A stretch of DNA of 64,000 bases, taken from the IMG/VR virus record IMGVR_UViG_3300028859_000011, positions 61,547-125,546 of that record; one strand, given 5' to 3'. Positions 6,062-64,000 of this stretch are shown piece after piece (positions within the stretch are counted from its first letter, which is position 1; every line of letters begins with the position of its first letter). The position numbers were made by a program, and so were the translations under genes. The notes beneath the pieces are model-generated. The model saw only the letters and a program-made list of their open reading frames with translations, was not told the DNA's origin and searched no databases. The DNA comes from a virus.

Positions 6062-6811
6062 ATGCAGAAAAACGATTTCAAAAACTACGCTACTAAGCAT
6101 TTACGTATGAATTCAACAGTGGTAGATAATGCAATAAAATATCAAATTAAGAATTATGGACTAACCCCTATGATATTAGAAGAAAGAAAATTAAATGTTA
6201 CACAATTATCTGTGTTTGATAGATTGCTTTTAGATAGAATTTTATGGGTCTCTGGAGAAGTAGATGATGTTATGTCAGATATTATTCAAGCACAATTGTT
6301 ATATTTGGATAATGCAGAACCTGGAAAGGATATTACAATGCAAATTTCAAGTCCAGGCGGGTCAGTTATACAAGGACTTGGTATCATTGATGTAATGAAC
6401 TGGATTAAGTCTGATGTGTCTACAGTCAATTTAGCAATGTGCGCGTCAATGGGGTCTGTTCTACTTTCTTCTGGTGAAAAAGGTAAACGTTCATCACTAA
6501 TTAATGCTACCGTTATGTTACATCATGTTGCTGCTGGAACTAGTGGTAAAGTAGATGACACTCGTATTAGTCAAATGGAGACTGAAAAATATAATTTTTT
6601 ATTATTCAAGATTCTTTCTCAAAATACTGGAAAGCCGTTTGAAGAAATCCACAATTTTTGTCAAAGAGATAAATGGTTAAATTCAGATCAAGCAGTACAA
6701 TATGGTTTGATCGATACTATTATTGGATTAAAAGATGATAATTCAAATTCAATTACCACTATGATGGATGGATTTAATGATTATTATGATAAATATGTAT
6801 TAGATAAATAA
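6062..6811 (+). CDS. clpP: ATP-dependent Clp protease proteolytic subunit
   Basis: LLDRILWV, IIQAQLLYLD, SPGGSV, catalytic Ser in CASMGS, His in MLHH, RDKWLNSDQAVQYGLID. Confidence 0.96.
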   Translation: MQKNDFKNYATKHLRMNSTVVDNAIKYQIKNYGLTPMILEERKLNVTQLSVFDRLLLDRILWVSGEVDDVMSDIIQAQLLYLDNAEPGKDITMQISSPGGSVIQGLGIIDVMNWIKSDVSTVNLAMCASMGSVLLSSGEKGKRSSLINATVMLHHVAAGTSGKVDDTRISQMETEKYNFLLFKILSQNTGKPFEEIHNFCQRDKWLNSDQAVQYGLIDTIIGLKDDNSNSITTMMDGFNDYYDKYVLDK

Positions 6812-14701: not shown

Positions 14702-14709
14702 CAAAAAAT

Positions 14710-14792: not shown

Positions 14793-14803
14793 CAATAAAA
14801 CAT

Positions 14804-14889
14804 GCTGATGTGGCGGAATGAATACGCGGCAGTCTAAGAAACTGTTTCTGAACAAAGTAAGAATGTGGGTTCAAGTCCCACCATCAGTA
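14804..14889 (+). tRNA. trnL: tRNA-Leu(AAG)
   Basis: Acceptor GCTGATG/CATCAGT, GCAGT-CTAAGAA-ACTGT, long variable arm, GGTTCAAGTCC, A73. Confidence 0.88.
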
Positions 14890-14896
14890 CAATAAT

Positions 14897-14970
14897 GACT
14901 GAGTGATGTAATTGGTAACCATGTCATCCTCAAAAGGTGAATTTTGTGGGTTCGACTCCCATCTCAGTTA
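14897..14970 (+). tRNA. trnL: tRNA with CAA anticodon (Leu) and a short variable loop
   Basis: Acceptor GACTGAG/CTCAGTT, TCATC-CTCAAAA-GGTGA, 5-nt variable loop, GGTTCGACTCC, A73. Confidence 0.85.
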
Positions 14971-14978
14971 CAATACAT

Positions 14979-15068
14979 GTTCCAGTGGCGAAACTTGGTT
15001 GAGACGCGTTAGATTTAGGATCTAATACAGTTAATGACACACTGCGGGTCCAAATCCCGCCTGGAATA
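14979..15068 (+). tRNA. trnL: tRNA-Leu(TAG)
   Basis: Acceptor GTTCCAG/CTGGAAT, TTAGA-TTTAGGA-TCTAA, long variable arm, A73. Confidence 0.92.
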
Positions 15069-15069
15069 C

Positions 15070-15114
15070 AAAGTGTGAGCCAATTTTATTAAAAAAATTG
15101 ACTCACACTTTTTT
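15070..15114 (+). terminator. Terminator closing the tRNA array
   Basis: aaagtgtgagccaatttt ... aaaattgactcacacttt followed by a T run. Confidence 0.8.
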
Positions 15115-15136
15115 ATATATACAATAAAAAAAGTAT

Positions 15137-16075
15137 ATGAATAAATATAATAAAGAAAAATTTGAAGAAGTTATTAAAAAATCATTTTCTTATTCAAGCA
15201 CTTGCAAGAATATTGGATTAGTGCCAGTAGGAGGAAATATTCTCACAGTAAAAAAATATATTAAATTATATAATATAAACATTGATCATTTTACTGGGCA
15301 AGGATGGAATTTTGGAGATAATTATAAGCAAACAAAAAATGCTATACCATTAAATGACATATTAGATGGTTTGCATCCATCATATGGCACAACTCATTTA
15401 AAGAAAAGATTAATTAAAGATAGACTAAAAGAAAATAGATGTGAAGAATGCGGGTTGACAGAATGGAATAATATGCCAATTGCTTTACAATTACATCATA
15501 AAGATGGTGATAGTACAAATCATAAATTTGAAAATTTAAAAATATTATGTCCAAATTGTCACACACAAACAGATACATATGGATCTAAAAATAAAGGAAC
15601 AGAGAAAACATATGATAAGATACAATTATTGGAATCTATTTCCAATTCCAAAAATTACAGTGAAGTCAAAATAAAAATAGGATTAAAAAGAGGAGGTGAT
15701 AATAATGTAATAAAAAATATCATGTTTGAATATGATATAAATTTTAATGACAGTGAAAAAATAAAAAGTATAATTTTAGAAGAAAAAGAATTAATAGAAA
15801 AAGAATTAATAGAAAAAGAAGAAATTCAAAATAAATCAACAAAAAAAATTAAAATTAGAAAAAAATATCCATCAATAAAAAATATTTGCTCATGCGGCAA
15901 AGAAATTCAAACCAGATCAAATCAGTGCAATGAGTGTTATAGATTATCTGAAAGAAAAGTAATGAACAGACCAACTAAAGATGAATTAAGATTAATGATA
16001 TCTGATACAAGTTTAGAAGCTGTTGGTAGAGTTTATGGTGTGACTGGCAATACAGTTAAGAAGTGGCTAAAATAA
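15137..16075 (+). CDS. HNH homing endonuclease
   Basis: CEECG...LQLHHKDGDSTNHKFENLKILCPNCHTQT; C-terminal CSCG..CNEC and HTH (SLEAVGRVYGVTGNTVKKW). Confidence 0.9.
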   Translation: MNKYNKEKFEEVIKKSFSYSSTCKNIGLVPVGGNILTVKKYIKLYNINIDHFTGQGWNFGDNYKQTKNAIPLNDILDGLHPSYGTTHLKKRLIKDRLKENRCEECGLTEWNNMPIALQLHHKDGDSTNHKFENLKILCPNCHTQTDTYGSKNKGTEKTYDKIQLLESISNSKNYSEVKIKIGLKRGGDNNVIKNIMFEYDINFNDSEKIKSIILEEKELIEKELIEKEEIQNKSTKKIKIRKKYPSIKNICSCGKEIQTRSNQCNECYRLSERKVMNRPTKDELRLMISDTSLEAVGRVYGVTGNTVKKWLK

Positions 16076-16089: not shown

Positions 16090-16129
16090 ATGTCTAAATG
16101 AGATGGTTCGACTCCCACCTAAGTTACAA
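16090..16129 (+). pseudogene. Degenerate tRNA 3' half
   Basis: GGTTCGACTCCCACCTAAGTTACAA closely matches the 3' end of the CAA tRNA (GGTTCGACTCCCATCTCAGTTACAA); no 5' half found. Confidence 0.6.
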
Positions 16130-16667
16130 ATTAAATTTCTTTGATGCTATAATTGATTCCATATCAATTATAGAACTTGACCAATACTTCATTGATCCAT
16201 CATCAGTTTTAACAATTCCTGGTCCGTCGTGAGGTCCAGGATTCATTTTTTTAACTTCATAATCAATTGAAGCCCATCTAAAATTTTCAATTCTTTCTTT
16301 CTTTATTACTTTACACAATTCAGTATTATTCCAACCAAGTAAGCAATAATCTCCAATAGATGGTAGATTTTCCAGATCTTCAATTTTTTTAGAATAGCTT
16401 TTTATTTGTTCACGTTTAACTAAAAAATTGTTATTCCACAATTCATATTTATCAAATTTAACGTTATAGTATTCTGTGTGTTTCTATAGATATTATTTTA
16501 CCTATTCTATATTTATAGTCAGTATCGTTTTTTCTAGGGGTAAAATATTCAGGTATTTTAGATTCATAGAAATCTTCGTTGAGTCTGACGTAATCATTTA
16601 TTTCTGGTTCTGAATCACGTGTAAATTCTTTTGTATTGTAGAATTCAATTTTTTTAATATGTTTCAT
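16124..16667 (-). pseudogene. Tagged protein split by a frameshift (MKHIKKIE ... SKKFNL)
   Basis: One frameshift in an ACACACA tract near 16473-16481 joins track ORFs 16464-16667 and 16124-16441 via EYYNVKFDKYELWNN. Confidence 0.65.
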
Positions 16668-17036
16668 ATGTTATATTTTTTTGCATGTATTTTTAGTTTG
16701 AATATCGTCATATATATCATCAAATGATATAGCTAAAAAATCATCAACTGATAGCATATTTTGCATGTAATCTATTCCATCACCCCAACCTCTTGTAGAA
16801 ACAGAACTGATAGATATTGAATATTCTGAATATTTTGAAACCTCAACAATTATTGCATAATAGCCTGGAGTTTTAACATTCCTTCTTATAGTATGTTCGT
16901 CATTATAACTTAGATTATATGTTTTGAGTTTATCAATAAGTTGTTCTGTTTGTTCGTCTGTTATGCCTTCAATATTTATTGCAAATCTGAATTTATTTTT
17001 AGAACTTTCATTAATGAATTGATTATATTTTTTCAT
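16664..17036 (-). CDS. MKKYNQFINE-family protein; C-terminal tag lies in a shifted frame
   Basis: Paralog of 17422-17856; the alternative frame ends IHAKKYNI* overlapping the next ATG. Confidence 0.7.
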
Positions 17037-17425
17037 AGGTTAAATTTATTTGCGTCATTTTTTAATTTAAAATAATTTTCAACTCCATCTAATCCAACCA
17101 ACAAAAATTCTTCTAATGATATTAAATTTACTTTTACTGAACTACCGAAATCTATACCTGAAATTTTAATATAATTAGTATTATTTATATCATAATACAA
17201 TGATATCTCCTATGAATATTTTGTTGATATTAAAAATTCTTCATTCCAAGAATATAATTTAACATGTTTTTTTATTTCATTTATTGCGGATTTTTTCTTA
17301 TCAATTGTATTATTTGTACTTTTATCAATAACAAATGTAATATTAGGCTCTGATTCAGGTATCATATCTTTACTATCAATTAATATGTAATTATTTTCAT
17401 TAATGAATTGGTTATATTTTTTCAT
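17033..17425 (-). pseudogene. MKKYNQFINE-family protein with an in-frame TAG
   Basis: TAG at 17210-17212; the frame stays open to ...LEEFLLVGLDGVENYFKLKNDANKFNL*, homologous to the neighbours' ends. Confidence 0.75.
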
Positions 17426-17856
17426 ATATTAAATTTATTTGCATCTTTTTTCATGTTGATAATTTCTTCTTTTGCTTTGACAAGTTCTTCAGCTCCTTCA
17501 AATCCAACTTTAAAGAATTCATCTAACGATAATATACATTCCATATAAGTATATCCTGCTCCCCAACGTGGTGTTGTAACTGTTGATATATCTATTCTAC
17601 AACGATTAAAATAATCAGTAATCTCGAATCCTAAAGCCCAAGGAAAGAAAGAATTACTTCCAAAAATATCCTTTTTGTATCTAAGACTCAATAATTCTGA
17701 TTTTCCAAATTCTGAATATTCATCATAATTTACAGATTTTTTGTAAATCATATCAAATAATTTATCAATTTGATCATCTGTGATATTTGTTATATCAACA
17801 GCAAATCTGAATTTATCAGAAATACTTTCATTGATGAATTGTTTATATTTTTTCAT
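17422..17856 (-). CDS. MKKYKQFINE...DANKFNI tagged protein
   Basis: ORF in a tandem paralog array. Confidence 0.8.
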   Translation of the reverse strand: MKKYKQFINESISDKFRFAVDITNITDDQIDKLFDMIYKKSVNYDEYSEFGKSELLSLRYKKDIFGSNSFFPWALGFEITDYFNRCRIDISTVTTPRWGAGYTYMECILSLDEFFKVGFEGAEELVKAKEEIINMKKDANKFNI

Positions 17857-18293
17857 AGGTTAAATTTATTTGCATCTTTCTTAATTTTATAAAGTGTTTC
17901 AACTCCTTCTAATCCAATTATAAGGAAATTATCTAATGAAATTATAAGGTTATTCTCACCTCTCATCTCATCAGATCTCAGTTTTAAAAAATCTATTGTA
18001 TCTCTTGGTATTGCAGAATTGCCCCAACTTTCATATACTTGAATATACCATACCCAGTAATTATTTTTATCTACTGAGAAACGTTTCCAATCAGTATCAT
18101 TATCTCTAATTAATAAACTTTTTATATTGTGAGTTTCTAATGTCACATATTTTCTAAATTCATCAAATGCTTCTTGTTGTCTTTTTTCATCTGCATCTTC
18201 CAATGATATGAAAAATTTAAAATCCATATTATTGGATGCATAATTTTCTCCATATGCTCTATTTTCGTTAATAAATTCTTTATATTTTTTCAT
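17853..18293 (-). CDS. MKKYKEFINE...DANKFNL tagged protein
   Basis: ORF in a tandem paralog array. Confidence 0.8.
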   Translation of the reverse strand: MKKYKEFINENRAYGENYASNNMDFKFFISLEDADEKRQQEAFDEFRKYVTLETHNIKSLLIRDNDTDWKRFSVDKNNYWVWYIQVYESWGNSAIPRDTIDFLKLRSDEMRGENNLIISLDNFLIIGLEGVETLYKIKKDANKFNL

Positions 18294-18757
18294 ATATTAA
18301 ATTTTTCAGCTTTTTTTATCATTAGATATTTTTGATATTGTTTTGGATATTCATCTATTATTTTCTTTTTATCATTAAGTTGTAAATATGTCAAAAAATC
18401 ATTACCAAGATTGTCTTTTAGATTCCAATTCGCATTAGATTCTATTAATACTTTTACTATATTAATATTTTCTCTTAATGTAGCATACTGTAATGCGGTT
18501 CTATCATATATATCTTGATAGTTTATATCAGCGCCTTTTTCTATTAAATACTCAACCACGTCTATTCTATTATTATCTGCTGCTAATATTAATGGTGTAT
18601 AATTATTATTTTCTATAATATTTATATCAATTTTTTCAACTTCTATATATTCTTTAACAACTTCTAAATCTCCCCTTCTACAAGCTTCAAATATACTAAT
18701 ATCACTATTGAAAAAGATATCAGAATATCTATCTTCAAATGTTTTTATAAATTTCAT
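18290..18757 (-). CDS. Ankyrin-repeat protein (MKFIKTFE...KAEKFNI)
   Basis: TPLILAA...VVEYLIEKGADIN; RTALQYA...IVKVLIESNA. Confidence 0.9.
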   Translation of the reverse strand: MKFIKTFEDRYSDIFFNSDISIFEACRRGDLEVVKEYIEVEKIDINIIENNNYTPLILAADNNRIDVVEYLIEKGADINYQDIYDRTALQYATLRENINIVKVLIESNANWNLKDNLGNDFLTYLQLNDKKKIIDEYPKQYQKYLMIKKAEKFNI

Positions 18758-19371
18758 ACCGCAGTTTTATTTTTTAATTTTGAAATTGCTTGTTTTATAA
18801 TATCTATTGTTAAGTTATTAATTTCAAATATATTAAAATCTCCTTCAATTTCTGTATTATGAGGATGTTCAATTTTAATTGACACTTTACTTAATGGTTT
18901 ACTCCCAATAACTTTTTGAGAGTCTTCTACTAATATATCAACAAATTTCCATTTATCACTTGATGAATTAACAAATATTATATCATCATATTTGAAACCA
19001 TAATGATCTAACCATTTTTTAGCAGCATTTTTAGATTCTTCAGTTGGTTGTTTAGTTATAATGTTTAATGTATATCCATAAGTTTTCACAAAGTCATATA
19101 TATTATTAACTGTATCAACTGCTCCTTTATATGGTTGAGCTATATCAAACACTTCAGCTTTTTTATTATTGAACCAAGTTTTAGATGATTCACCGTTATA
19201 ATCCATAGTTTCATACCAATGCCAATTTTGATCACTAGTTATTTCTTTATCAGGAAAATATCTTTTATATAGTGTATTATAAGAATTAACAAAATCACAT
19301 ATAGTACCATCAATATCGATTCCTATTGTTACTTTATTAGTAAATGTTTCAAATAATTTTAGATGTTTCAT
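18754..19371 (-). CDS. 5'(3')-deoxyribonucleotidase (NT5C-like HAD)
   Basis: IGIDIDGTICDF motif I, IITKQ, ILVEDS; N-terminus MKHLKLFETF. Confidence 0.85.
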   Translation of the reverse strand: MKHLKLFETFTNKVTIGIDIDGTICDFVNSYNTLYKRYFPDKEITSDQNWHWYETMDYNGESSKTWFNNKKAEVFDIAQPYKGAVDTVNNIYDFVKTYGYTLNIITKQPTEESKNAAKKWLDHYGFKYDDIIFVNSSSDKWKFVDILVEDSQKVIGSKPLSKVSIKIEHPHNTEIEGDFNIFEINNLTIDIIKQAISKLKNKTAV

Positions 19372-19394
19372 ATTTTAATTAAAATTTTATATAT

Positions 19395-19454
19395 TATATA
19401 TAAATTTTTAAGCTAAGATTTATTTTAAAAATGAGTTATATTTTTTTATATATA
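19395..19454. promoter_or_regulatory. Divergent pair of TTTATATATA motifs (candidate phage late promoter)
   Basis: Minus strand 19395-19404 before 19371; plus strand 19445-19454 before 19481; the motif recurs before many other genes. Confidence 0.55.
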
Positions 19455-19480
19455 ATATAATAAAAAACAACTTAACTATA

Positions 19481-19675
19481 ATGAAAACAAAACTAGAAAA
19501 CCTATTAAGTTTTACTGATTTTACTGGTAACTATAATTCACAGCAAGCAACTAAAACTAAAAGAACAGACACTGGAGTAGATGTCATAAAAGAAAATAAT
19601 GAAGAGAATATCGAAGATAATATTGAAGATAAAGATTATTCTACTGAATTTGATTCTGAACTTGAAAAAGATTAA
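19481..19675 (+). CDS. Small acidic protein
   Basis: MKTKLENLLSFTDF N-terminus, D/E-rich tail. Confidence 0.6.
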   Translation: MKTKLENLLSFTDFTGNYNSQQATKTKRTDTGVDVIKENNEENIEDNIEDKDYSTEFDSELEKD

Positions 19676-19870
19676 TATATATTTAATTAACAAAAAAATA
19701 TAGAATTGAAATTATTCTATATTTTTATATAATTCACATATTGCTATTCCAGTTATTATATCATATGATATTATTTCTCCTATGATTTCAGTTAAATTTT
19801 CTTCTGATACAACTGTGCCTATAACATCATCCATTATTAATTTTTTTTCAAGTTGAATTTTTATTTCCAT

Positions 19871-20062
19871 TTAATATTCATTTAATTTTTTAAGTTTTAA
19901 TTTTCTTAATTCTGATTGATCATAATAGAATATAGCAATAGTTATATAATCATCATCTTGAGTTTGAGTGACATTGAATATTTCAATATTACTAGTAGAC
20001 AACCATTCATTTATTTTTTCTTCTAATGTAGTTTTATTAGAATTTATAATCTTACATTTCAT
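19871..20062 (-). CDS. Small protein with RKLKLKKL tag
   Basis: ORF ending ELRKLKLKKLNEY. Confidence 0.65.
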   Translation of the reverse strand: MKCKIINSNKTTLEEKINEWLSTSNIEIFNVTQTQDDDYITIAIFYYDQSELRKLKLKKLNEY

Positions 20063-20175
20063 TATTTAAAAATATTTTTATACATTATATATTATAAGTT
20101 ATGCATTCAAATTAAAAATTAACTCATATTTATAATAATAAAAAATTATATATAATTAAAATATAAAAAATATCA

Positions 20176-20439
20176 ATGAGTAAAAATAATTTAATTTTAA
20201 TTTCTAAACCTAATACCACCAAATATTACATTAATTTTTTAAAGACTACTGGAAAAATAGCATTAGAAATTGATAATAATGAAATTTATATGTTATCAGA
20301 AGATAATAATTTTTTAATAATGGAGAATGGCTCATATGAATTAAATGAAATTTATAATAATGAAATTTATATGTTATCAGAAGATAATAATTTTTTAATA
20401 ATGGAGAATGGCTCATATGAATTAAAAGAAATTTTATAA
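20176..20439 (+). CDS. Probable structural accessory protein with an internal 27-aa duplication
   Basis: NNEIYMLSEDNNFLIMENGSYEL occurs twice; 73 bp identical at a period of 81 nt. Confidence 0.6.
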   Translation: MSKNNLILISKPNTTKYYINFLKTTGKIALEIDNNEIYMLSEDNNFLIMENGSYELNEIYNNEIYMLSEDNNFLIMENGSYELKEIL

Positions 20440-20497
20440 TTGATAAAATTTATTTTAATTATAAAATTTATATATAATATAAAATAATTAACAAAAT

Positions 20498-20938
20498 ATG
20501 AATAGCGAAAAACAATCAAAATTATGGATAAATAATAACTGGGTATATTTCAAAATAAAAATTGGTACGTACACTAATATTATCACATTTTTAGATGATA
20601 ATAATATATCTTTTATTAAATATAATTATATTGATTTTACTAAAATTCCAAGTGTTATATATGGTTACGGTAAGAGTACAAATTTATTAGAATATTTATC
20701 TAATAATAATAACAATGGAAATTTAATAATATCATTTTTAAATTATTTTTTAAATAGTTTAAAATTTAGTTATATTGATGGATCAGCAATAAGAATATTA
20801 ATGGTGAATAATATAGATTGGAAAATTTCAAATGTAATAGTTATAAAAAATAATTGGAAGTATTTTACAGTTGATACATCATTTTTTACCGCAGATAATA
20901 GTATAATTACAGCAGATAAAACAATTATTACAATATAA
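20498..20938 (+). CDS. Probable structural accessory protein
   Basis: C-terminal FTVDTSFFTADNSIITAD motif; lies in an operon with the fibre gene. Confidence 0.55.
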   Translation: MNSEKQSKLWINNNWVYFKIKIGTYTNIITFLDDNNISFIKYNYIDFTKIPSVIYGYGKSTNLLEYLSNNNNNGNLIISFLNYFLNSLKFSYIDGSAIRILMVNNIDWKISNVIVIKNNWKYFTVDTSFFTADNSIITADKTIITI

Positions 20939-20962
20939 TTATTTCATAAAAAATAAAAAAAT

Positions 20963-23992
<3,030 letters not shown>

Positions 23993-23996
23993 AAAT

Positions 23997-24025
23997 AAAA
24001 GAGTAGATTTTAAATCTACTCTTTT
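23997..24025. terminator. Bidirectional terminator
   Basis: aaaagagtagattt-t-aaatctactctttt between convergent genes. Confidence 0.8.
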
Positions 24026-24612
24026 TACATATTAAATTTTTTAGAATCTCTATATAAAGGATAATATTTAGTATTAATTTCATCATATTCTTTCCAACTC
24101 GTTTGAAATATATATCCAAAATTTTCTACATATTTATTATTTTTAGCCATATCTATAAATAGTTTGTGATAATTTATACATCTATTAATAAAAAATTCCC
24201 CTTTCCCTATAATAGAGCTAATTAAATCTAAATAACCATCATCTGATGGCATAAAGGCTGAATATTTATTATCTAGCCAAGTAGGTTTAAAATATAAATA
24301 AAGTTCTTCTATTAACTTATCATATTCATTTTTAAAATTCATAAGAGTATTATATTCAAAATTTTTGAATACTCTTATTTTCAATTTTAATTCTTCTTCT
24401 TTATCTTTATTTTCAAATTCATCCTTAGTTTTAATTATTTTATTCCAATCAACTACACGTATAAAATTCCAAAAATCATCACTATAATTATTAACATTAG
24501 GCTTATTAATTCTAATAATATCACCGTTACTAGTTATAGTTATCAAATTACCATTTTTATCATAATGCTCATTGTACTCTATATTTTCAAATATTTTAAA
24601 AATTGTTATCAT
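24025..24612 (-). CDS. Tagged hypothetical protein (MITIFKIFE...SKKFNM)
   Basis: ORF with both terminal tags. Confidence 0.75.
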   Translation of the reverse strand: MITIFKIFENIEYNEHYDKNGNLITITSNGDIIRINKPNVNNYSDDFWNFIRVVDWNKIIKTKDEFENKDKEEELKLKIRVFKNFEYNTLMNFKNEYDKLIEELYLYFKPTWLDNKYSAFMPSDDGYLDLISSIIGKGEFFINRCINYHKLFIDMAKNNKYVENFGYIFQTSWKEYDEINTKYYPLYRDSKKFNM

Positions 24613-24616
24613 ATTA

Positions 24617-25771
24617 TTACATATTAAATTTATTTGTATCTACGATAAACATATATTGTTTAAATTCTTTTTTAATTTCTGAATCTAATATGAAATTAGA
24701 ATTTAGTTTTTTTAACGCATCAGCTATCAAATCACCTTTTTCTTCTTCTGTACTATCATCATAACCGTTTTCTTTTACATATTCTTTTATATATCTTTTT
24801 TGAAATTCATATTCATCTGAAATATCATCATTATGCTCATCTTTATCTTCAAATATTTCAAAAAGTAACAATGTAAGATTATCTGAATCATTAAAATTAT
24901 CCATTAAATAATGTTGTATTTCTATGCTATTTGCAATTTGATATTTTATCCAATCAGATTTAGTATCATCATTTTCAAATTTTTTATAATTTTTTACAAG
25001 TTTATCATCATCTATATATGAACTAAAATTTTGATAAAATTTTTTAGGAGTCATATCTTTAATAAGTTCTGATAAATTATCTACACAATATATTTCTACT
25101 AATAGTTCGGTAAAATATCTACCTTCATATCTATCTCTGATCATTTCATCAAAAAAATCTACTTCATCAGTATATTCTTGTATTACATATTTTAATTGAT
25201 CTGAATCTAAATCATCTATCATATCAGAATCATATTCCACATCATTACTTTTTGCAATAATAGTATCATAACTAATTTCATCTCCATCTTCAACCAAAAT
25301 AAAAAAATTATTAGGTATTTCATATTCCTCAGTAGAATCACCTTCAGTTATTACAATTTTTCGTATATCATCATTTTCTATAATAGAAACTATTCCATCA
25401 TATTCAGTTTTTATAATTTTTTCACTATCATTATTTTCACAATAATATTCAATTATTTTATTCTCCATTTCTATAGTTAAATGATTTTCTATATAATCTT
25501 TAAATTCTTGATCATCAAAATCATCCATTGATGAATTATTAATTTCATTTTTTATAGTATCTTCAACATATTTATCACTATCAAAAACTCCAGATATTAT
25601 ATTTGGATCATTTGTTATTATATCAATAATATCACTCTCATTATAATTAGTCAAATAGTGTTCATCATAATAATTTGATATATAATCATTATCTAAAAAT
25701 TCATTTACTAATTCATATTTTGAGCTATCTGCACTCTCAAATAATTTAAATTTTTTAAAACTTACTATCAT
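24617..25771 (-). CDS. Very acidic tagged protein (MIVSFKKFKLFE...DTNKFNM)
   Basis: 384-aa D/E-rich ORF with both terminal tags. Confidence 0.8.
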   Translation of the reverse strand: MIVSFKKFKLFESADSSKYELVNEFLDNDYISNYYDEHYLTNYNESDIIDIITNDPNIISGVFDSDKYVEDTIKNEINNSSMDDFDDQEFKDYIENHLTIEMENKIIEYYCENNDSEKIIKTEYDGIVSIIENDDIRKIVITEGDSTEEYEIPNNFFILVEDGDEISYDTIIAKSNDVEYDSDMIDDLDSDQLKYVIQEYTDEVDFFDEMIRDRYEGRYFTELLVEIYCVDNLSELIKDMTPKKFYQNFSSYIDDDKLVKNYKKFENDDTKSDWIKYQIANSIEIQHYLMDNFNDSDNLTLLLFEIFEDKDEHNDDISDEYEFQKRYIKEYVKENGYDDSTEEEKGDLIADALKKLNSNFILDSEIKKEFKQYMFIVDTNKFNM

Positions 25772-25895
25772 ATTTTTTATTTTGTTATATCTTTAATTTT
25801 TATTATGATTAAATGCTATTTTAATAATATCTATTGATATTAATTATAATAGATGATGAAACTATTCATTATATAAATACAACTCTTAAAACTCA

Positions 25896-26720
25896 TTATA
25901 TGTTGAATTTACTGGTATCATTAATAATACTCCATTCATTATAGTATTCATCTGATAATAAATTAGAAAAATCATCTATTGTTTTATATAATTCATTTTT
26001 AAATATAAAGAATTTTTTCAATTCTTCAATTTTATATTCTCTATCTGCAATAAATTTTTTATTTTTATTTTTATCAATATTTTGTAAAAAAATATTAGAG
26101 TCAAATAAATATTCATTAAATATTATACTATATTTGAATAATTTTGTTCTTAAATTATAAAATTGATGAATAGATATAAAATTAGGTATTTTACCAGTAT
26201 ATACATTTTTAATATGTGCTGAATTAAAATTGATATTATCTATTTCAAAATAACCATAAGTATCTTTTGTAAAATTATTAGTTTTTCTAATGAGTTTATC
26301 AAAAACATCTACATAACGTGATTTTATTTTTGCACTATTAAAATATTTTGATATATTTTTATCTTTACTAATATATAACATAATATTATATAATTCTGAT
26401 GAATACATTTTATTTTGAATATCAGTTATTTCTGAATCATATTCTTTTAATATTCTATCATTTTCTTCTTCTTTAAATTTTTCACGTCCTATTTTTTTAA
26501 TATGATTTATTCGTTCTTTCTCTATAATATCTAATTTTTTTCTATATTCAGGATCAAATTCTTCATATTTTTGTTTAGCAATATTAAGTCCTTTGTTACC
26601 AATTAAATTTAAAAATTTAGTATATAACTCTGAATTCTCTTTTTTTACCTTATCTAAAAACTTAACATTTTCTTTATCTTGTAGTATATCAAATACTTTA
26701 AATTCAAATATTTTTTTCAT
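25896..26720 (-). CDS. Tagged hypothetical protein (MKKIFE...DTSKFNI)
   Basis: ORF with both terminal tags. Confidence 0.75.
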   Translation of the reverse strand: MKKIFEFKVFDILQDKENVKFLDKVKKENSELYTKFLNLIGNKGLNIAKQKYEEFDPEYRKKLDIIEKERINHIKKIGREKFKEEENDRILKEYDSEITDIQNKMYSSELYNIMLYISKDKNISKYFNSAKIKSRYVDVFDKLIRKTNNFTKDTYGYFEIDNINFNSAHIKNVYTGKIPNFISIHQFYNLRTKLFKYSIIFNEYLFDSNIFLQNIDKNKNKKFIADREYKIEELKKFFIFKNELYKTIDDFSNLLSDEYYNEWSIINDTSKFNI

Positions 26721-26723
26721 TTA

Positions 26724-27062
26724 TTATAAATTAAAATTTTTAGTGTCATTAGTAAATTCTGGAACATTAAAATATTCAAGAAAAATTGGAAATCTATTAT
26801 AATTAACATTAAACTCTTGTAGATTTTCATTATCATCGAACATAAGAACTTTATGAATACATTCAATCGGCAAATAATTTAAGACATATTTATTTATTGC
26901 TGCTTCTGTATCACCATAATATCCAGAAACCTTATAATATACCCCTTTTTTAAAATTTATAACTTCATTAGTTGATTTTTTATGATAATTTTTTATGCAT
27001 ATTACATTATCATCTATTCTCCTCAAATCTGGATTATTATAATTTTCAAATATAGTTATCAT
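26724..27062 (-). CDS. Tagged hypothetical protein (MITIFE...DTKNFNL)
   Basis: ORF with both terminal tags. Confidence 0.75.
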   Translation of the reverse strand: MITIFENYNNPDLRRIDDNVICIKNYHKKSTNEVINFKKGVYYKVSGYYGDTEAAINKYVLNYLPIECIHKVLMFDDNENLQEFNVNYNRFPIFLEYFNVPEFTNDTKNFNL

Positions 27063-27400
27063 AAATTAAATTTATTTGTATCTAATATTAAAAGATATTC
27101 TTTTTTTGCATCTTTAATATTATCATATGATGATTTAACATAAATTTCATAAATATATAATATATCAGTTAATTTACATTCAAAACTTAAATCATCTGGA
27201 TTCCACATATAAATTTCAAGATTAACACTATAATATGAATTAACACTAATAAATTTAGCAAGATAATAATCTTCTTTATATTTAAATATTACATATTTAT
27301 CATAATATTTTTTATAGTCCAATGCTTTTTTAGCCATCTTTTCATTACATTTTTTTATTGAATCTTCAATAGTATTTTCAAAATGTTTAATATACTTCAT
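27059..27400 (-). CDS. Tagged hypothetical protein (MKYIKHFE...DTNKFNL)
   Basis: ORF with both tags; TTTATATATA on the minus strand at 27423-27432. Confidence 0.75.
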   Translation of the reverse strand: MKYIKHFENTIEDSIKKCNEKMAKKALDYKKYYDKYVIFKYKEDYYLAKFISVNSYYSVNLEIYMWNPDDLSFECKLTDILYIYEIYVKSSYDNIKDAKKEYLLILDTNKFNL

Positions 27401-27698
27401 TTAATATAAATATAATTTATAATATATATAAAAATAAAATAACGCAAACTTTTATAATTATTATTTATATAATAAATAAAAAAATATGCAAACAGTTTGT
27501 TTTTAATTCATCAGATAAAACTACTATTTTATATGAAGGTTAGATTAGGTTATTATGAAATAATGCAAAAAAAAGAAATATCTAATTATAGCAATGGAAA
27601 AAATGTTACGTTTTCAGTGGCCAGATTACCTATTTCTAATACCAATATGATAATAAAAAATGAATAAATATTATATAAATATTATATAAATATTATAT

Positions 27699-28283
27699 TT
27701 ATAAATTAAAAATATTTGCATCTCTTTTCATTTCCCATTCTTCTTTATATTGCGGAAATCTATCTGTTATATATTTTTCAATATTATCAATAAACTCATT
27801 TTTATGATCATTAATTTTTTTATATTTCATAATATAATCATAAAAATTTTCATCGTAATTATTTTTTTTATCAAGATTAAATCCATGACTTAAAAATTTA
27901 TTTAATATTATAATAAATGTTCCTGAATCATAAATATATTGTACATAATATACTAATGCTGAATTATCATTAATATCTCTAATATTAACATCTGCTTTTG
28001 CATTTAATAATTTATTAATAACTAATAATGTAGACGCCATCATTAATGCTGTCATTTTGTGCTTATCAGTAGCATTAACATCAGCATTTCCTTCTATTAA
28101 TGCATCAACAACAAATGGAAATTTAATAGCGTGCATTAATGCTGTTCTACCATCAGAATCTTTCATATTAATTTCAACATTTTCTTTTATCGCTTGCTTT
28201 ACCGCATTTGTATTTCCTCTTTTTGCTGCTGATATAAAAGGATGCTCTTTTACTGATTTTTCAAATAATTTTAAATATTTCAT
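27699..28283 (-). CDS. Ankyrin-repeat protein (MKYLKLFE...DANIFNL)
   Basis: AAKRGN, DGRTALMHA...ALIEGNADVNATD, TALMMAS...LLNAKADVN. Confidence 0.9.
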   Translation of the reverse strand: MKYLKLFEKSVKEHPFISAAKRGNTNAVKQAIKENVEINMKDSDGRTALMHAIKFPFVVDALIEGNADVNATDKHKMTALMMASTLLVINKLLNAKADVNIRDINDNSALVYYVQYIYDSGTFIIILNKFLSHGFNLDKKNNYDENFYDYIMKYKKINDHKNEFIDNIEKYITDRFPQYKEEWEMKRDANIFNL

Positions 28284-28366: not shown

Positions 28367-29863
28367 TTATTTGTCTATAAACAATTTATTATCAGGTGGC
28401 CATTGTATATCTGGAGCTTCTTGCGCTTCAGTAATTACCCATAATATTTTATCATAATATTTAGGAATTTGATATTTAAATTTATTTGGTGGAACACCAT
28501 GAGAATCTGTAAAATATATAACAAACGAAGGAACTGTTCCTTTTTTAATCATATTATTTTCAATCCATTGAAACGGCGGAATAAAACTTGTTCCTCCTCC
28601 ACCTATTGCTTTAAAATGTTTAGCAAGAATTTCTTTAAATTTACCTTCATTCATAGAATCTCCACTCTTTGTTTTAAGATCTATTTTTTCTATTCCTTTT
28701 ATATCAGCATCACACCATATAATTATAGCTTCTTCTATTTTTTTTGAACCAAAAATACCATAAATTTCTGCTGCAAATTTACCAAGTGTATCATCTCCAA
28801 TTGAGCCAGATGTATCAACACATAATACAATTTTTCTAAATCCACTATCCTTAGGAAATTTTAATCCTGGTAAATACATTGGATCATCTTGACCTATAAA
28901 TCTCTTATTAAAATAACCATATTTAGGATTACTAGCAAAGCATTTATTCATAAATTTAATTAATGTCGCTTTCCAATTAACTTTTGGTTTACCAATTTTA
29001 TTAAACCATCTATTCAATGTTGCTGAACCAGTTCCTTGATTTTTACTTTTAGCATCATTTAATATCTTACCCCATTCTCTAGCTAAATCTGTAACATCTT
29101 CTACTTTTGCTAATTCATCATTACCTTCAAATAATGTTGGTCCTTTTTTATCAGTTAAACTACCTGGCTCTCTTAAATCATTTGTTCCTGGTATTGAACC
29201 TCCTCCATCTCCTCCTGGACCTCCTCCATCTCCTCCTGGACCTCCTTCATCTCCTCCTGGACCTCCTCCTGGACCTCCTCCATCTCCTCCTGGACCTCCT
29301 CCATCTCCTCCTTTTTTAGGTTTTTTAGGATTATTTTTTTCTTCTGTTTCAAGAATCACATAAATTTGTTCAGCACTCATACCTCTATATTTTTCATCTA
29401 ATAAAATATTTTGTGGTACACTCAATATATTAACAACAGATGCTGCACCTTCAGGCTTTTCTTTACTCATATCAGCTATTTGAATATTAATAGCATAATC
29501 AGTTGCTTGATTCCACAATGAATGATCTCTATCTCCTTGTCTTAAAAAGTGAAGATTTGCGTTATGCATAACTTCATGTATCAGCACAAATGCTACTTCC
29601 TCAGTATTTCTTAATACTTCATTTACAAATTTAGGACTATATAAAATACTTTTACCATCAGTTGCCATAGTGTCAATTCCACTATTTGGAGATGCTTCTG
29701 CGATAGTCAATTGAAAAAATAAATCAGCAAAGAAATTATAATACGACATAGTAGATGCTAATGCTGCTCTAACTCTACCTTTTGCTAATTTATTTAAATT
29801 TGGATCATTTAAATCTTCATTTGTACTTAATAAATTAAATATGTTAAATTTTTTTATCATCAT
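28367..29863 (-). CDS. DUF2201-type metallopeptidase plus VWA domain protein
   Basis: TMATDG, IHEVMH (HExxH), Gly/Pro/Asp linker, MIDAS VDTSGS; likely start at MMIKKF (29863) rather than the track's 29914. Confidence 0.88.
   Translation of the reverse strand: MMIKKFNIFNLLSTNEDLNDPNLNKLAKGRVRAALASTMSYYNFFADLFFQLTIAEASPNSGIDTMATDGKSILYSPKFVNEVLRNTEEVAFVLIHEVMHNANLHFLRQGDRDHSLWNQATDYAINIQIADMSKEKPEGAASVVNILSVPQNILLDEKYRGMSAEQIYVILETEEKNNPKKPKKGGDGGGPGGDGGGPGGGPGGDEGGPGGDGGGPGGDGGGSIPGTNDLREPGSLTDKKGPTLFEGNDELAKVEDVTDLAREWGKILNDAKSKNQGTGSATLNRWFNKIGKPKVNWKATLIKFMNKCFASNPKYGYFNKRFIGQDDPMYLPGLKFPKDSGFRKIVLCVDTSGSIGDDTLGKFAAEIYGIFGSKKIEEAIIIWCDADIKGIEKIDLKTKSGDSMNEGKFKEILAKHFKAIGGGGTSFIPPFQWIENNMIKKGTVPSFVIYFTDSHGVPPNKFKYQIPKYYDKILWVITEAQEAPDIQWPPDNKLFIDK
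29199..29312. repeat. 21-nt tandem repeat encoding the GGDGGGP linker
   Basis: ctcctccatctcctcctggac units. Confidence 0.85.
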
Positions 29864-29874
29864 TTTTATTTTTT

Positions 29875-31413
29875 TTATTTTCCTACCATAGTTTTTTGGA
29901 ATACAGAATGCCATTTTTTAGCAAATTCTGTCCATATAGGTAAATATTCTTTTTTAATATATGGATGAGCTTTTAAGAAATAAGATCCTATTGTTACAAT
30001 TGCCTCATTTTCTTTACCCATAGTAGCGAAATCATATACATTTTTTACTTCATCAGCAGTCAAATGTTTACCTTGTTTAAAAGTTGCAATAGCAATTGAA
30101 CAAGCTCTAATTTGGTCTTGTCTTGTAGGCCATTTTACTTTTTTAGATTCTGCATTACCATCATATATATCTTGAATATCTTTTTCACTAAAGAACTCTT
30201 GTAATTTCATATAATTAATAAAATCTAATGTAGGTTCTAATCCTACATATTTAGTGTATATTTTTTGAATTTGAGGATATGTTAATTTTTTAGACCAATC
30301 TTCACCTCTATAATTATATTCATCTTGTGAAGCCATTTCCCAAGATCTTGGAGATGCCCATACTGGACTACCAGATTCTAGATCTAATCTATGAAAGTAA
30401 TTAGGATGATATTGTAAATATGAAATAAGAAATGGATTAATATCTTTTTTAGTTAATGCCCATTTAACCCAATCATCAACAGTTGGAGTATAATTAACAT
30501 GAGCAAAACGATTCCACAAAATTGGATCATCAGTCAAATCAGTTGTATTTATATCATCTTTTCTATTACCTGCTGCAATAATAATCCATCTTGGAGGTAA
30601 ATCATAATCACCATGTTTACCACTTAATGCTAATGCTAATGATGCACTTAATACCATTTGTGGTGCTCTATTCATTTCATCAAAAAACATAATACCACCT
30701 TTTCCATTACCATCACTTGTAGGAAATATTGCTGGTAATTTAGAAACAGTTTGATTATTTTCAATTTTAGGAACTCCTCTAAAGTCAGTAGGTTCAATTT
30801 GGGATAAATGCCATTCTTGAACAACAATATCTAATTCTTTAGCTACCTGATGTAAAATTTCAGTTTTACCAATACCAGGAGCGCCCCAAATAAACAATGC
30901 ATGTGTTTTTTTTCTGGCAAATTCAGAGGTTCTTTCATAATTATCTTGTTCATGCTTAGTTGCTCTATGTAAATTCATATTATAAACTCTTTTGATTCTA
31001 TCTTTAAGCTCATCAACATTTATATTTCTCATTACTTCTTCATCACCACTTGGATATTTTAAAGTTACAAATGCTTCATCTACAGGCATTTCTTTTTTTA
31101 TTTTTTCTCCTTTTTCATCAAATCTTGAACGTATTTCATTTTCTATATCTTCTGCTGTAGGAACTTTAACACCAGATTTCATTCTATCAAAATAATTATT
31201 TGGAATAATCACTTCAACTACATCTCTAGTTTTACCATCTTCATCTACATATGTTGGAATTTCACCTTTTTCTTTTAAATATTTAGCATAATATAACCAT
31301 GAATTTTTACCAAATTTTTTATTGAAAAAATTAGATACCACATTCCATGCGTTTTTTAACACATTTTCATTTAATTTATATTCTTCAGAATAACTATCAT
31401 ATTTCTTTATCAT
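29875..31413 (-). CDS. MoxR-type AAA+ ATPase, copy 1
   Basis: Walker A GAPGIGKT, LSQIEPTDFRGVP, Walker B FFDEMNRA, AAGN, NRF, SPRSWE. Confidence 0.9.
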   Translation of the reverse strand: MIKKYDSYSEEYKLNENVLKNAWNVVSNFFNKKFGKNSWLYYAKYLKEKGEIPTYVDEDGKTRDVVEVIIPNNYFDRMKSGVKVPTAEDIENEIRSRFDEKGEKIKKEMPVDEAFVTLKYPSGDEEVMRNINVDELKDRIKRVYNMNLHRATKHEQDNYERTSEFARKKTHALFIWGAPGIGKTEILHQVAKELDIVVQEWHLSQIEPTDFRGVPKIENNQTVSKLPAIFPTSDGNGKGGIMFFDEMNRAPQMVLSASLALALSGKHGDYDLPPRWIIIAAGNRKDDINTTDLTDDPILWNRFAHVNYTPTVDDWVKWALTKKDINPFLISYLQYHPNYFHRLDLESGSPVWASPRSWEMASQDEYNYRGEDWSKKLTYPQIQKIYTKYVGLEPTLDFINYMKLQEFFSEKDIQDIYDGNAESKKVKWPTRQDQIRACSIAIATFKQGKHLTADEVKNVYDFATMGKENEAIVTIGSYFLKAHPYIKKEYLPIWTEFAKKWHSVFQKTMVGK

Positions 31414-31459
31414 TTTATTTTTTTTATTTTTTTATAATTTATTATTTTAGGTTTTTTAA

Positions 31460-32878
31460 TTATTCTGGTGTTCCCTTCTTTTTTCTTCTTTCTTCATCTT
31501 TCTTTCTTTCTTCTTCACGTTCTTTCTCATCTATTTTTTGCAACCAGTTAACAAATGCGGTAGCACTTGCATATCCAACAAAATCTTCATATATATTTTT
31601 TACTTCATTATATGGTAATTTATTTTTCCAATCAAATCCTCTTTCAAAATAATCTTCTTCTGATGCCATCTCCCAAGTTCTTGGAGATGTCCAATTTGGA
31701 GCTTGACTAACAGTATTTAATCTATGATAATATTCTGGATTTTCAGTAATAAATTGTATAAGTTTAGGATTAACTGATTTTATATTTTTTGCATATCCAA
31801 TCCAATCAGAAGGTCTTGGAGAAAAATTAATATGCTGAAATCTATTCCATAAAATTTTATCATCAGTTAAATCACCTGTACTTAAATCTGATCCTCTATT
31901 ACCTGCAGCAATAACTATCCAATATTGAGGTAATTCATAAGTACCATGTTTACCACTTAATGCTAATGATAATGATGCATCAAGTACCATTTGTGGTGCT
32001 CTATTCATTTCATCAAAAAACATAATACCACCTTTTCCATTTTTACCATTACTGGTAGGAAAAATTGATGGTAATTTCCAAACTGTTCTTTCATCTTTTG
32101 AATCATCAGATCCAATAATATTTTCAATTTTAGGAATTCCTCTAAAGTCAGTAGGCTCAATTTGTGATAAATGCCATTCTATTACGGCAATATCTAATTC
32201 TTTAGCTACCTGATGTAAAATTTCAGTTTTTCCAATTCCAGGTGCACCCCAAATAAATATCGCATTAGTTTTTTTTCTACCAAATTCATTAGATTTTTCT
32301 CCTTCTTCTTGATGCCTACCTGCTCTAAGAGCATTCATATTATAAAGTCTTTTTACTTCTTCTTTTAATTCAGCAACATCTTCATTAACTACATTTGGAT
32401 CTGGATGATCTAAACTTACAAAATCTTGATTATCATCAAGTAAACTTTCATTCAAATATATTTTTGTTAAACTTTCTTTAACTTTTTCTAATTCTTCTAT
32501 TTCATTATCAACTTTATTTTCTTCTTGATTTTCATCATCTTTAAGTCCAGGAATTTCATTTTCTTTTTCATCTTCAACTGTTTCATTATCAACAGGTTCA
32601 ACATCAGATTGAATTTGAGAATCTTCAATTTCTTTATCAGTTGGTATATCTGATATGTTAGCATATGTTGGAGGACATATTAATTCAATACCTTTTGGTA
32701 GTTTTCCTTTTTTCTGTAAATATAATGCATAATATATCCAAGCGTGTTTTCCAAAATGATTTTTGAAAAAAGAAATTACTTTATTAAAAATATCAGAAAA
32801 GACATTTTCATTGATTTTTGCACTTTCATTTGCTCTATATTCTTTAGAAAAATGATCATAATTTTTTAATGTTTTCAT
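31460..32878 (-). CDS. MoxR-type AAA+ ATPase, copy 2, with a short charged C-terminus
   Basis: Same motifs as copy 1 (GAPGIGKT, FFDEMNRA, SPRTWE); TTTATATATA upstream at 32900-32909. Confidence 0.9.
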   Translation of the reverse strand: MKTLKNYDHFSKEYRANESAKINENVFSDIFNKVISFFKNHFGKHAWIYYALYLQKKGKLPKGIELICPPTYANISDIPTDKEIEDSQIQSDVEPVDNETVEDEKENEIPGLKDDENQEENKVDNEIEELEKVKESLTKIYLNESLLDDNQDFVSLDHPDPNVVNEDVAELKEEVKRLYNMNALRAGRHQEEGEKSNEFGRKKTNAIFIWGAPGIGKTEILHQVAKELDIAVIEWHLSQIEPTDFRGIPKIENIIGSDDSKDERTVWKLPSIFPTSNGKNGKGGIMFFDEMNRAPQMVLDASLSLALSGKHGTYELPQYWIVIAAGNRGSDLSTGDLTDDKILWNRFQHINFSPRPSDWIGYAKNIKSVNPKLIQFITENPEYYHRLNTVSQAPNWTSPRTWEMASEEDYFERGFDWKNKLPYNEVKNIYEDFVGYASATAFVNWLQKIDEKEREEERKKDEERRKKKGTPE

Positions 32879-33599: not shown

Positions 33600-33608
33600 A
33601 ATTTCTAA

Positions 33609-63576: not shown

Positions 63577-64000
<424 letters not shown>

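Follow-up and report, generated by a model that had tools for sequence, protein, structure and literature searches.

A conserved C-terminal segment that looks like a second address on predicted head-packed proteins of a ~700-kb bacterial virus clade

C-terminal prohead-targeting signals are present in the HK97 protease, the P22 scaffold and the herpesvirus scaffolds. The SPN3US protease (gp245) has a C-terminal propeptide, a precedent for an address to the head (PMC7411985). The T4 capsid-targeting sequence (CTS) MKTYQEFIAE receives a single cut from the T4 protease gp21 (PMC8442874; PMC5694885), and T4 Alt is processed at both ends (PMC5694885). The cargo-loading peptides of encapsulins act as a C-terminal address to a shell (PMC7355545). 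In this study, we describe a C-terminal tag, paired with an N-terminal leader on predicted head-packed proteins, that looks like a second address not described before. No mention of the motif was found in the literature searched.

The window is a stretch of 64,000 nucleotides (positions 61,547 to 125,546 of IMG/VR record IMGVR_UViG_3300028859_000011) from an uncultivated bacterial virus of ~700 kb, in which about one gene in ten is tagged. The initial annotation had listed 12 genes ending in a KFN-type tag, and all 12 ends were found on the minus strand between 16124 and 28283 (Table 1). Nine of these genes are intact with the N-leader, and three are broken. K[FY]N[LIMV]-COOH ends 20 of the 230 genes in the 125-kb contig (expected 0.07-0.09; Poisson tail 1e-39) and 42 of the 397 genes in its relative G001 (235 kb; expected 0.07-0.10; Poisson tail 6e-94). 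When C-terminal tetrapeptides were counted, KFNI and KFNL came out on top by a wide margin, with an enrichment far above chance. The carriers are small, with a median length of 120 aa. Of the 62 carriers in the two contigs, 50 had another carrier as direct neighbour, forming tandem arrays. Gene overlap does not account for the tag, as 36 of the 62 end at TAA without an ATGA overlap.

Table 1. Features discussed in the text; positions are those of the window unless a locus name precedes them
Feature	Position	Strand	Details
Cellular-type ClpP	6062..6811	+	neither tag; PF00574 E=2e-52
Broken carrier	16124..16667	-	N-leader half 16464-16667 (starts MKHIKKIEF), C-tag half 16124-16441 (ends SKKFNL), frameshift between; three-frame translation
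Broken carrier paralogue	16671..17036	-	leader MKKYNQFINE; AKKYNI reached solely after frameshift
Broken carrier	17033..17425	-	131 codons; starts MKKYNQFINE, ends DANKFNL; one in-frame TAG at 17210-17212
Intact carrier	17422..17856	-	144 aa; starts MKKYKQFINE, ends DANKFNI
Intact carrier	17853..18293	-	146 aa; starts MKKYKEFINE, ends DANKFNL
Intact ankyrin-repeat carrier	18290..18757	-	155 aa; starts MKFIKTFE, ends KAEKFNI; Pfam ankyrin families E=1e-20
NT5C-type 5'-nucleotidase	18754..19371	-	N-leader only; Pfam PF06941
Intact carrier	24025..24612	-	195 aa; starts MITIFKIFE, ends DSKKFNM; terminator-like hairpin 3'; weak DUF4240 match, under family cut-off
Intact carrier	24617..25771	-	384 aa; starts MIVSFKKFKLFE, ends DTNKFNM; homologues in clade contigs only, one contig of 711 kb
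Intact carrier	25896..26720	-	274 aa; starts MKKIFEFKVF, ends DTSKFNI; orthologue ends KYNI
Intact carrier	26724..27062	-	112 aa; starts MITIFE, ends DTKNFNL; orthologue ends HKYNI
Intact carrier	27059..27400	-	113 aa; starts MKYIKHFE, ends DTNKFNL; operon head, TATATATA upstream
Intact ankyrin-repeat carrier	27699..28283	-	194 aa; starts MKYLKLFE, ends DANIFNL; Pfam Ank_2 E=2e-13; orthologue ends NKFNV
DUF2201 metallopeptidase-VWA protein and two MoxR-class AAA+ ATPases	28367..32878	-	N-leader only
ClpA/C-type unfoldase	L002:13607-16141		outside the window; 844 aa, two-ring, Clp_N domains, IGF ClpP-docking loop
Clade capsid protein	L400:12477-14306		

Selection on the tag was assessed in 20 best-match pairs between the 125-kb contig and G001. 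Asn(-1) showed six synonymous and no non-synonymous changes, and Phe(-2) showed four synonymous changes and two from Phe to Tyr. The last residue changed eight times, in every case to another of L, I, M or V. This pattern of purifying selection with synonymous turnover bears out the earlier suggestion that the protein is what is selected. After trimming of the tags, 355 unique carriers fell into 132 BLAST clusters; judged by this clustering, the tag is modular and spread over at least 132 sequence families. Together with the synonymous turnover, these clusters agree with the description of a modular second tag acting at the protein level on unrelated proteins. The short KFN-type tag is a real C-terminal end, but the conserved element is longer than had been thought. 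Column information exceeds background from about -19 to 0, giving a segment of 16-19 residues with KFN[LI] at its tip and a consensus of about [ST]xE[ED]-Phi-x-Phi-x-x-[NDS]-[TAS]-[NK]-K-F-N-[LI]-COOH. The segment has no cleavage motif.

The carriers had been said to differ in fold, which holds for at least two, an ankyrin solenoid and an SH3-like barrel (Pfam and AlphaFold2 models); both halves of the broken carrier at 16124..16667 match the HMM of the SH3-like family. AlphaFold2 models of the two folds place the segment in a terminal helix, and in both the N-leader has a pLDDT below 50, the helix exceeds 90 up to about -5 and the last five residues lie at 63-67. In the 155-aa ankyrin carrier, residues 1-17 of the leader fall below 50, the helix spans residues 138-153 and the last five residues reach 67. 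The final residues presumably follow a Schellman-type helix-capping pattern.

The main leader form in carriers is MK[YH][IL]KxFE. The variant MKKY(N/K)QFINE is identical to the T4 leader at M1, K2, Y4, F7, I8 and E10, and [LI]xE peaks at carrier residues 8-9 (12-13 of 126 family representatives per position, 2 expected). By residue identity, the carrier leader thus resembles the T4 capsid-targeting sequence. With a deliberately crude leader pattern, the odds ratios for co-occurrence of C-tag and N-leader were 39 (p=1e-11) in the 125-kb contig and 27 (p=4e-18) in G001, and nearly all cases with the C-tag alone proved by eye to have a leader variant or a miscalled start. The tag is therefore found essentially only together with the N-leader, as the initial annotation had claimed. 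Its converse claim also held, since the NT5C nucleotidase, the two AAA+ ATPases and the DUF2201 VWA protein have the leader without the tag.

The tag is restricted to one clade. Other phages commonly have the leader beside T4-type prohead protease genes while lacking the C-tag. In loci of such phages retrieved with their protease-scaffold genes (S77/T4 gp21 family), 13 genes have a leader of the form MKH[IV]KLFE, and the C-tag was found on none of 1056 genes. A leader without C-tag beside S77-type protease genes indicates that the leader alone goes with the protease and that the C-tag is a later, clade-specific addition. The 462-kb phage LR756500.1 encodes a Peptidase_S77 protease, eight N-leaders and two ClpP genes, and has no ORF ending in KFN[LIMV]. 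The occurrence of leader, protease and ClpP without the C-tag in this phage makes the C-tag specific to the ~700-kb clade.

In clade relatives, carriers lie among head genes. No T4-like head genes or prohead protease were found on the 125-kb contig or on five large fragments. Clade relatives encode a gp20 portal (PF07230, E=1e-62), a protease-scaffold protein of ~785 aa (phrog_207, E=8e-31; Peptidase_S80 above the cut-off, Peptidase_S77 just below) and a major head protein of 610 aa (phrog_138, E=9e-22). In three of the five loci examined, a carrier gene sits between portal and protease, the place occupied in T4 by the core genes 67 and 68. The interval from the protease to the capsid gene holds no separate gp22-like scaffold gene in these relatives. 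The extreme C-terminus of the protease-scaffold family is conserved as R-F-[NK]-[KR]. When scored with a 4-residue tag matrix against non-carrier C-termini, three of the four clade protease tails ranked within the best 4% and the RFNK-type family tail within the best 2%. The fourth clade tail and the commonest family tail, RFKR, were unremarkable, and so were all tails when scored over 8 residues. The likeness of the cargo tag to the protease-scaffold tail is weak by this measure. TATATATA was found upstream of 18 of 31 tagged-operon heads versus 49 of 286 others (p=2e-6), which favours the head-cargo reading; it also lies upstream of tail-fibre genes and other large genes of unknown family.

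We propose a role for the segment as a portable recognition peptide of predicted head-loaded proteins. Our leading but still tentative reading, to which we give a probability of roughly 0.4, is that it serves as a docking peptide kept on mature head cargo once the leader has been removed. By analogy with T4, the disordered leader would bring the protein into the prohead core, and a T4-type prohead protease would then cut it off after the conserved Glu. Since the segment has no cleavage site of its own, it would remain on the mature cargo as the only common feature. Through it, the numerous small cargo proteins may then all dock to a single partner that the phage encodes and that lies within the head; the inner face of the capsid, the scaffold part of the protease and another core protein are candidates. 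Such docking could serve co-assembly, retention or orderly release. Several points count against this reading. The head module comes from clade relatives and not from the 125-kb contig, and the tag is only weakly similar to the protease-scaffold tail. The N-leader alone suffices in T4 and in the tag-less relatives, so that the need for a second packaging signal is not obvious. In the models, the segment appears to run on directly from the fold and not to hang on a flexible linker, on which encapsulin cargo-loading peptides usually sit. Its hydrophobic periodicity peaks at 160 and 120 degrees and does not match a classical amphipathic helix.

The same retained end could instead be read only after maturation, a possibility we consider unlikely. 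Either the tagged end would lead the way through the portal and tail channel, or the N-leader MoxR ATPases and VWA-metallopeptidase, if co-packaged, would refold or process the cargo by its tag in the new host cell. The tag would again be the sole element shared by mature cargo after leader loss, the carriers are small, and the N-leader proteins without it are larger enzymes, including the MoxR/VWA set adjoining the carriers; the present data do not tell this apart from docking inside the head. We know of no sequence-defined export or threading signal for phage ejection proteins, which counts against it. The initial annotation had allowed for a handle or a degron, and a handle left on mature cargo fits the data better. 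In the second case, the phage ClpA/C-type unfoldase with ClpP, or a host AAA+ protease, would read the free C-terminus and clear injected or unpackaged cargo on schedule. The phage does encode a Clp unfoldase with an IGF loop and a cellular-type ClpP (NCBIfam ClpP 241 bits, versus 72 for the ClpP-related head maturation protease), the last tag residue is aliphatic, and the last five residues are modelled less confidently. However, the two ClpP genes of the tag-less, leader-bearing 462-kb phage indicate that the presence of ClpP does not follow that of the tag. In the models, the tag caps a helix that belongs to the fold, and it is confined to N-leader proteins. Known ssrA-like degrons are also less strict than the near-invariant Lys, Phe and Asn seen here. 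We therefore regard clearance by a degron as rather doubtful. ClpP and two AAA+ ATPases of the window had been cited in connection with this idea; ClpP is there, but both ATPases are MoxR-class rather than Clp unfoldases and themselves carry the N-leader. Tail-specific proteases had also been mentioned as readers of such ends. The tag does match the class II PDZ ligand motif Phi-x-Phi-COOH (Phe/Tyr at -2, L/I/M/V at 0), but PDZ_2, PDZ_6 and Peptidase_S41 gave no match above the cut-off in up to five clade fragments, each 18-46% of a genome, and neither a PDZ domain nor such a protease was found there.

Two further explanations seem improbable to us. The leader of one cargo protein might bind the C-terminal segment of another, head to tail, giving a mixed polymer or inner core of the ~700-kb phage head that the prohead protease dissolves by clipping leaders, freeing more than 100 effector proteins for ejection. 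Almost every C-tag comes with an N-leader, about 10% of genes have both, and the missing gp22-like gene would suit such a core. Nevertheless, both monomer models show a disordered leader, the protease could itself provide a scaffold through its long C-terminal part, and the leader alone is enough for the tag-less relatives, which makes this self-assembly very unlikely. Slightly less probable still is that the tag has no function of its own and is a helix-capping box from one ancestral cassette, kept uniform by recombination between conserved junctions (KFNI-stop/ATG-AAA). Identical junction repeats are present, carriers stand in tandem arrays, and the three broken copies indicate rapid gene turnover. 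Such an origin is hard to reconcile with 132 families that lack detectable similarity and include ankyrin repeats, with a tag that persists on either strand, where arrays end and ahead of TAA stops, and with residues that stay constant while synonymous sites vary.

Should the tag serve as a signal for loading or handling, sequence alone would be enough to mark out the complete set of proteins that a megaphage delivers into its host. This payload would comprise dozens of genes per fragment and, by extrapolation, more than 100 per genome, with ankyrin-repeat proteins and many families of unknown function among them. In that case, the tag would also show how payload is organised in very large heads and provide a short portable peptide pair for putting foreign proteins into T4-like capsids. 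The leader-only relatives and the two-tag clade form a natural comparison that can be used for finding the tag reader.

Compared with known systems, the tag shares with ssrA-type degrons and class II PDZ ligands a free C-terminus that ends in an aliphatic residue and has an aromatic one at -2, whereas its Lys, Phe and Asn are nearly invariant. Like the prohead-targeting signals, it is a short C-terminal element with a proposed role in recruiting a protein to the head during assembly, and it has a basic residue, Phe and Asn in common with the tail R-F-[NK]-[KR] of this lineage's protease-scaffold family, a weak likeness. Those signals occur on no more than one or two assembly proteins and are mostly cleaved off, whereas here more than 100 cargo proteins have the tag without a cleavage site. 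Encapsulin cargo also consists of unrelated proteins with a conserved terminal peptide, which is sufficient for loading an HK97-fold shell (PMC7355545). The tag differs from it in sequence, in capping a modelled helix, in its pairing with a predicted cleavable N-leader and in the DNA-filled virion. In T4, the CTS proteins (IPI-III and Alt) are likewise unrelated proteins with a common leader of ~10 residues, MK..(Y)..F(I).E, with an [LI]xE-type site; their genes also lie in variable arrays, and the portal, prohead protease and capsid protein of the clade are of the T4 type. No common C-terminal motif of the T4 internal proteins is reported in the cited papers, and the T4 set numbers four. In contrast, the clade has dozens of such proteins per contig and a second, C-terminal segment, without cleavage motif, on about two-thirds of its leader-bearing proteins.

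All twelve KFN[L/I/M] endings described in the initial annotation were found in the sequence; nine of the genes behind them are intact and three are broken. The C-terminal tag (C-tag, K[FY]N[LIMV]-COOH) occurs at 20 of 230 gene ends in the source contig and at 42 of 397 in a 235-kb relative (G001). The comparison with background proposed in that annotation therefore came out for enrichment, since approximately 0.1 was expected per contig, either from composition or from the internal rate of the same tetrapeptide. Overlap with the next start, which had been raised as a possible sole cause of the conservation, does not explain the tag, because 36 of 62 carriers end in a TAA stop without such overlap, and the tag also occurs at the ends of arrays and on either strand. 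Selection was compared in 20 best-match pairs between the source contig and G001 (30-83% identity). Asn(-1) had six synonymous changes and no replacements, Phe(-2) had four synonymous and two Phe-to-Tyr changes, and changes of the final residue were confined to L/I/M/V. These changes bear out the varying codons and alternating last residue reported earlier. The motif was not found in the literature searched. In a more distant contig, L023 (IMGVR_UViG_3300031521_000202), Tyr and Phe stand 5 to 5 at position -2 and beta-branched residues are found at -5; judging from these 10 carriers only, the tag may have shifted throughout that lineage.

An IMG/VR pattern scan detected the KFN[LI]-stop/MK junction in 119 or more stretches, spread over about 45 contigs. 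Together with the source contig and G001, 355 unique carriers were collected, forming 132 BLAST clusters after both tags were trimmed. With one representative per cluster, column information rose above background at about -19 to 0, with the consensus [ST]xE[ED]-Phi(-11)-x-Phi(-9)-x-x-[NDS]-[TAS]-[NK]-K-F-N-[LI]. The N-terminal signal (N-leader) comprises residues 1-9, MK[YH][IL]KxFE, with variants including MITxFKIFE and MKKYxQFINE. Two unrelated carriers were modelled with AlphaFold2, an ankyrin protein in the window (pLDDT 89) and an SH3-like barrel protein in the first half of the contig (pLDDT 85). Each model shows a disordered N-leader (pLDDT <50) and closes with a confidently predicted helix that runs to Phe(-2), the final five residues having a pLDDT of 63-67. 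In our reading, the small(-5)...Phe(-2)-Asn(-1)-Phi(0) pattern would fit a helix C-capping (Schellman-type) motif. The tag's hydrophobic periodicity has its maxima at 160 and 120 degrees, not at 100. [LI]xE was modestly enriched 12 residues from the C-terminus (13 vs 2 expected); a conserved C-terminal cleavage site was rejected, since this motif is limited to approximately 10% of families.

The N-leader and the C-tag co-occur strongly, with odds ratios of 39 in the source contig and 27 in G001. The earlier statement that every carrier has the N-terminal tag holds in the main: some genes appear to have the C-tag only, but most of these carry a variant leader, have a miscalled start or are broken. 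Proteins with the leader alone are larger, and the enzymes among them comprise an NT5C nucleotidase, two MoxR-class AAA+ ATPases and a DUF2201 metallopeptidase-VWA protein; the nucleotidase and ATPases indeed lack the C-tag, as first noted. The DUF2201-VWA protein and the MoxR ATPases may be packaged together with the cargo. In other phages with 27-46% G+C, a MKH[IV]KLFE leader was found on 13 genes in 80 loci around homologues of a prohead protease-scaffold (S77/T4 gp21 family), and the C-tag was absent from all 1056 genes in these loci. In the 462-kb phage LR756500.1, which encodes a Peptidase_S77 protease (E=2e-12), eight genes have the leader MKYIKEYE; KFN-x-stop matches the DNA of this genome eight times, never at the end of an ORF.

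Coordinates of features in the window, the source contig (G000, with L002 and L003) and related contigs (the other L-handles and G015).
Feature	Location	Remarks
Cellular-type ClpP	window 6062-6811	N-terminal extension of ~48 residues
Five consecutive tRNA-Leu genes, then a 312-aa ORF	window 14616-16075	four different anticodons
Carrier split by a frameshift	window 16124-16667	both halves match the same family HMM
Carrier with a frameshift ahead of the tag	window 16671-17036	
Two-tag carrier, otherwise complete	window 17033-17425	minus strand; one in-frame TAG at 17210-17212
TATATATA sites	upstream of window 18754-19371, 27059-27400, 27699-28283, 31460-32878 and others	
Two ORFs with the ending MTIVDANA	window 21307-23367, 63577-63945	
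DUF2201 metallopeptidase-VWA protein, two MoxR-class AAA+ ATPases	window 28367-32878	leader-like N-termini
Small-gene family ending in a basic RKxKLxK[LI] helix	window 42381-44952, 52169-53533, 60462-61639	plus strand; no N-leader
ClpA/C-type unfoldase	L002:13607-16141 (G000 32607-35141)	IGF ClpP-docking loop
Ribosomal protein bS1 homologue	L003:4660-5817 (G000 42660-43817)	385 aa; E=2e-15 vs solved S1 structures
Clade head module	G015, L399-L404	head closure protein; gp20-type portal, E=1e-62; two unknown proteins (L400:6647-7537, L402:6123-6677)
Clade protease-scaffold		about 785 aa; phrog_207, E=8e-31; L400:10001-12370
Clade major head protein		610 aa; phrog_138, E=9e-22; L400:12477-14306
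gp21-type proteases with fused extension	L393:17146-19488, L400:10001-12370	
ORF with weak Peptidase_S77 match	L395:10227-10679	150 aa

The source contig (125,546 bp, 22% G+C, the window being its second half) is 18% complete by CheckV, and its close relatives are fragments of 95-330 kb with an estimated completeness of 13-46%. The genome size was put at about 700 kb because one homologue sits on a 711-kb contig. Genes on the source contig include those for a tail-fibre protein, NAD-dependent ligase, ClpP, a Clp unfoldase and a bS1 homologue, along with five for tRNA-Leu. Capsid gene candidates on it were rejected, being the bS1 homologue and a GH15-like protein, and a tRNA-like 3' half beside window position 16124 was not confirmed by ARAGORN or Rfam. 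The 686-aa protein of the MTIVDANA pair has an orthologue that weakly matches T4_gp9_10_N (baseplate). In a clade relative, a LAGLIDADG/HTH homing-endonuclease-like gene lies close to a carrier array, and several homing endonuclease genes interrupt the head modules of relatives. Scanning of bacterial genomes with the junction pattern gave seven chance matches at lipoprotein or signal-peptide starts and no clue to the host.

Three adjacent cargo genes are broken, two by frameshifts and one by the TAG, which suggests fast birth and death of carriers or homopolymer errors in assembly. A nonsense polymorphism, faulty assembly or read-through could account for the TAG itself. No tmRNA or suppressor tRNA was found that would explain it or supply a look-alike tag (G000 and G001 were searched for a suppressor). 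Tagged operon heads share the upstream motif TATATATA with the tail-fibre gene and further large genes whose family is unknown (p=2e-6); it stands 6-50 nt from the start codon and is a candidate late promoter. One member of the RKxKLxK[LI] family is a weak hit (E=0.005) of the HMM built for the SH3-like carriers, so a single core domain may have two destinations.

A T4-type head module was found in other contigs of the clade and not in the source contig. Of five loci examined, three have a two-tag carrier between the portal and the protease, the interval occupied in T4 by core genes 67 and 68. Peptidase_S77 and Gp23 searches of G000-G005 (the source contig and other contigs or fragments) gave no match, nor did the LR756500.1 protease as query against five fragments; an AT-rich DNA pattern for the protease motif GELDHP recovered no clade contig. 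The T4 gp21-type proteases with a fused long C-terminal extension number more than 5000 (homologues P0009-P0128 among them), and clade members were absent from the best 120 of this family in a profile search with the protease alignment. Across 120 homologues the extreme C-terminus is conserved as [LF][KR][RKQ]-R-F-[NK]-[KR]; the clade has F-[DA]-K-L-[NS]-S instead, and lacks a separate scaffold gene between its protease and capsid genes. The protease-scaffold tail and the cargo tag have a basic residue, Phe/Leu and Asn in common. This likeness is a lead only, because it is weak when scored with the tag's own matrix, and the idea that the cargo tag copies the protease tail was rejected. The ORF on L395 (IMGVR_UViG_3300022555_000011) ends in a basic tail of the RKxKLxK[LI] type and resembles a piece of a protease that bears this other address.

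Several other roles for the tag were weighed. A handle used in or after ejection is unlikely. A Clp degron, quite unlikely in our view, would fit the phage ClpP, which is genuine, and an 844-aa ClpA/C-type unfoldase with an IGF loop. However, this unfoldase is encoded outside the window; the two AAA+ ATPases that the initial annotation had set beside ClpP are MoxR-class and themselves carry the N-leader, and LR756500.1 has two ClpP genes but no C-tag. Searches for PDZ_2, PDZ_6 and Peptidase_S41 in up to five clade fragments gave no match over the cut-off. Head-to-tail self-scaffolding of the cargo is improbable. That the tag is simply an inherited capping box, made uniform through cassette recombination, is most improbable.

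We favor the reading, at a probability of about 40%, that the C-terminal segment docks the cargo onto one common component of the head. We infer that the carriers are present in the virion and processed. Four observations speak for head cargo: the leader on genes around prohead protease-scaffolds of other phages, leader and Peptidase_S77 protease together in LR756500.1, the clade's head module with its embedded carrier, and the TATATATA motif that tagged operons have in common with the tail-fibre gene. If the N-leader were removed as in T4, the C-terminal segment would be the sole feature common to mature cargo, and would therefore be read by whatever handles the cargo collectively. The leader of the carriers resembles the T4 capsid-targeting sequence MKTYQEFIAE, which directs internal proteins into the prohead core and is removed by a single cut of the protease gp21 (PMC8442874; PMC3012670; PMC5694885). 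Precedents for a C-terminal address are the targeting propeptide proposed for the SPN3US protease (PMC7411985), T4 Alt, whose N- and C-terminal ends are both trimmed (PMC5694885), and the cargo-loading peptides of encapsulins (PMC7355545).
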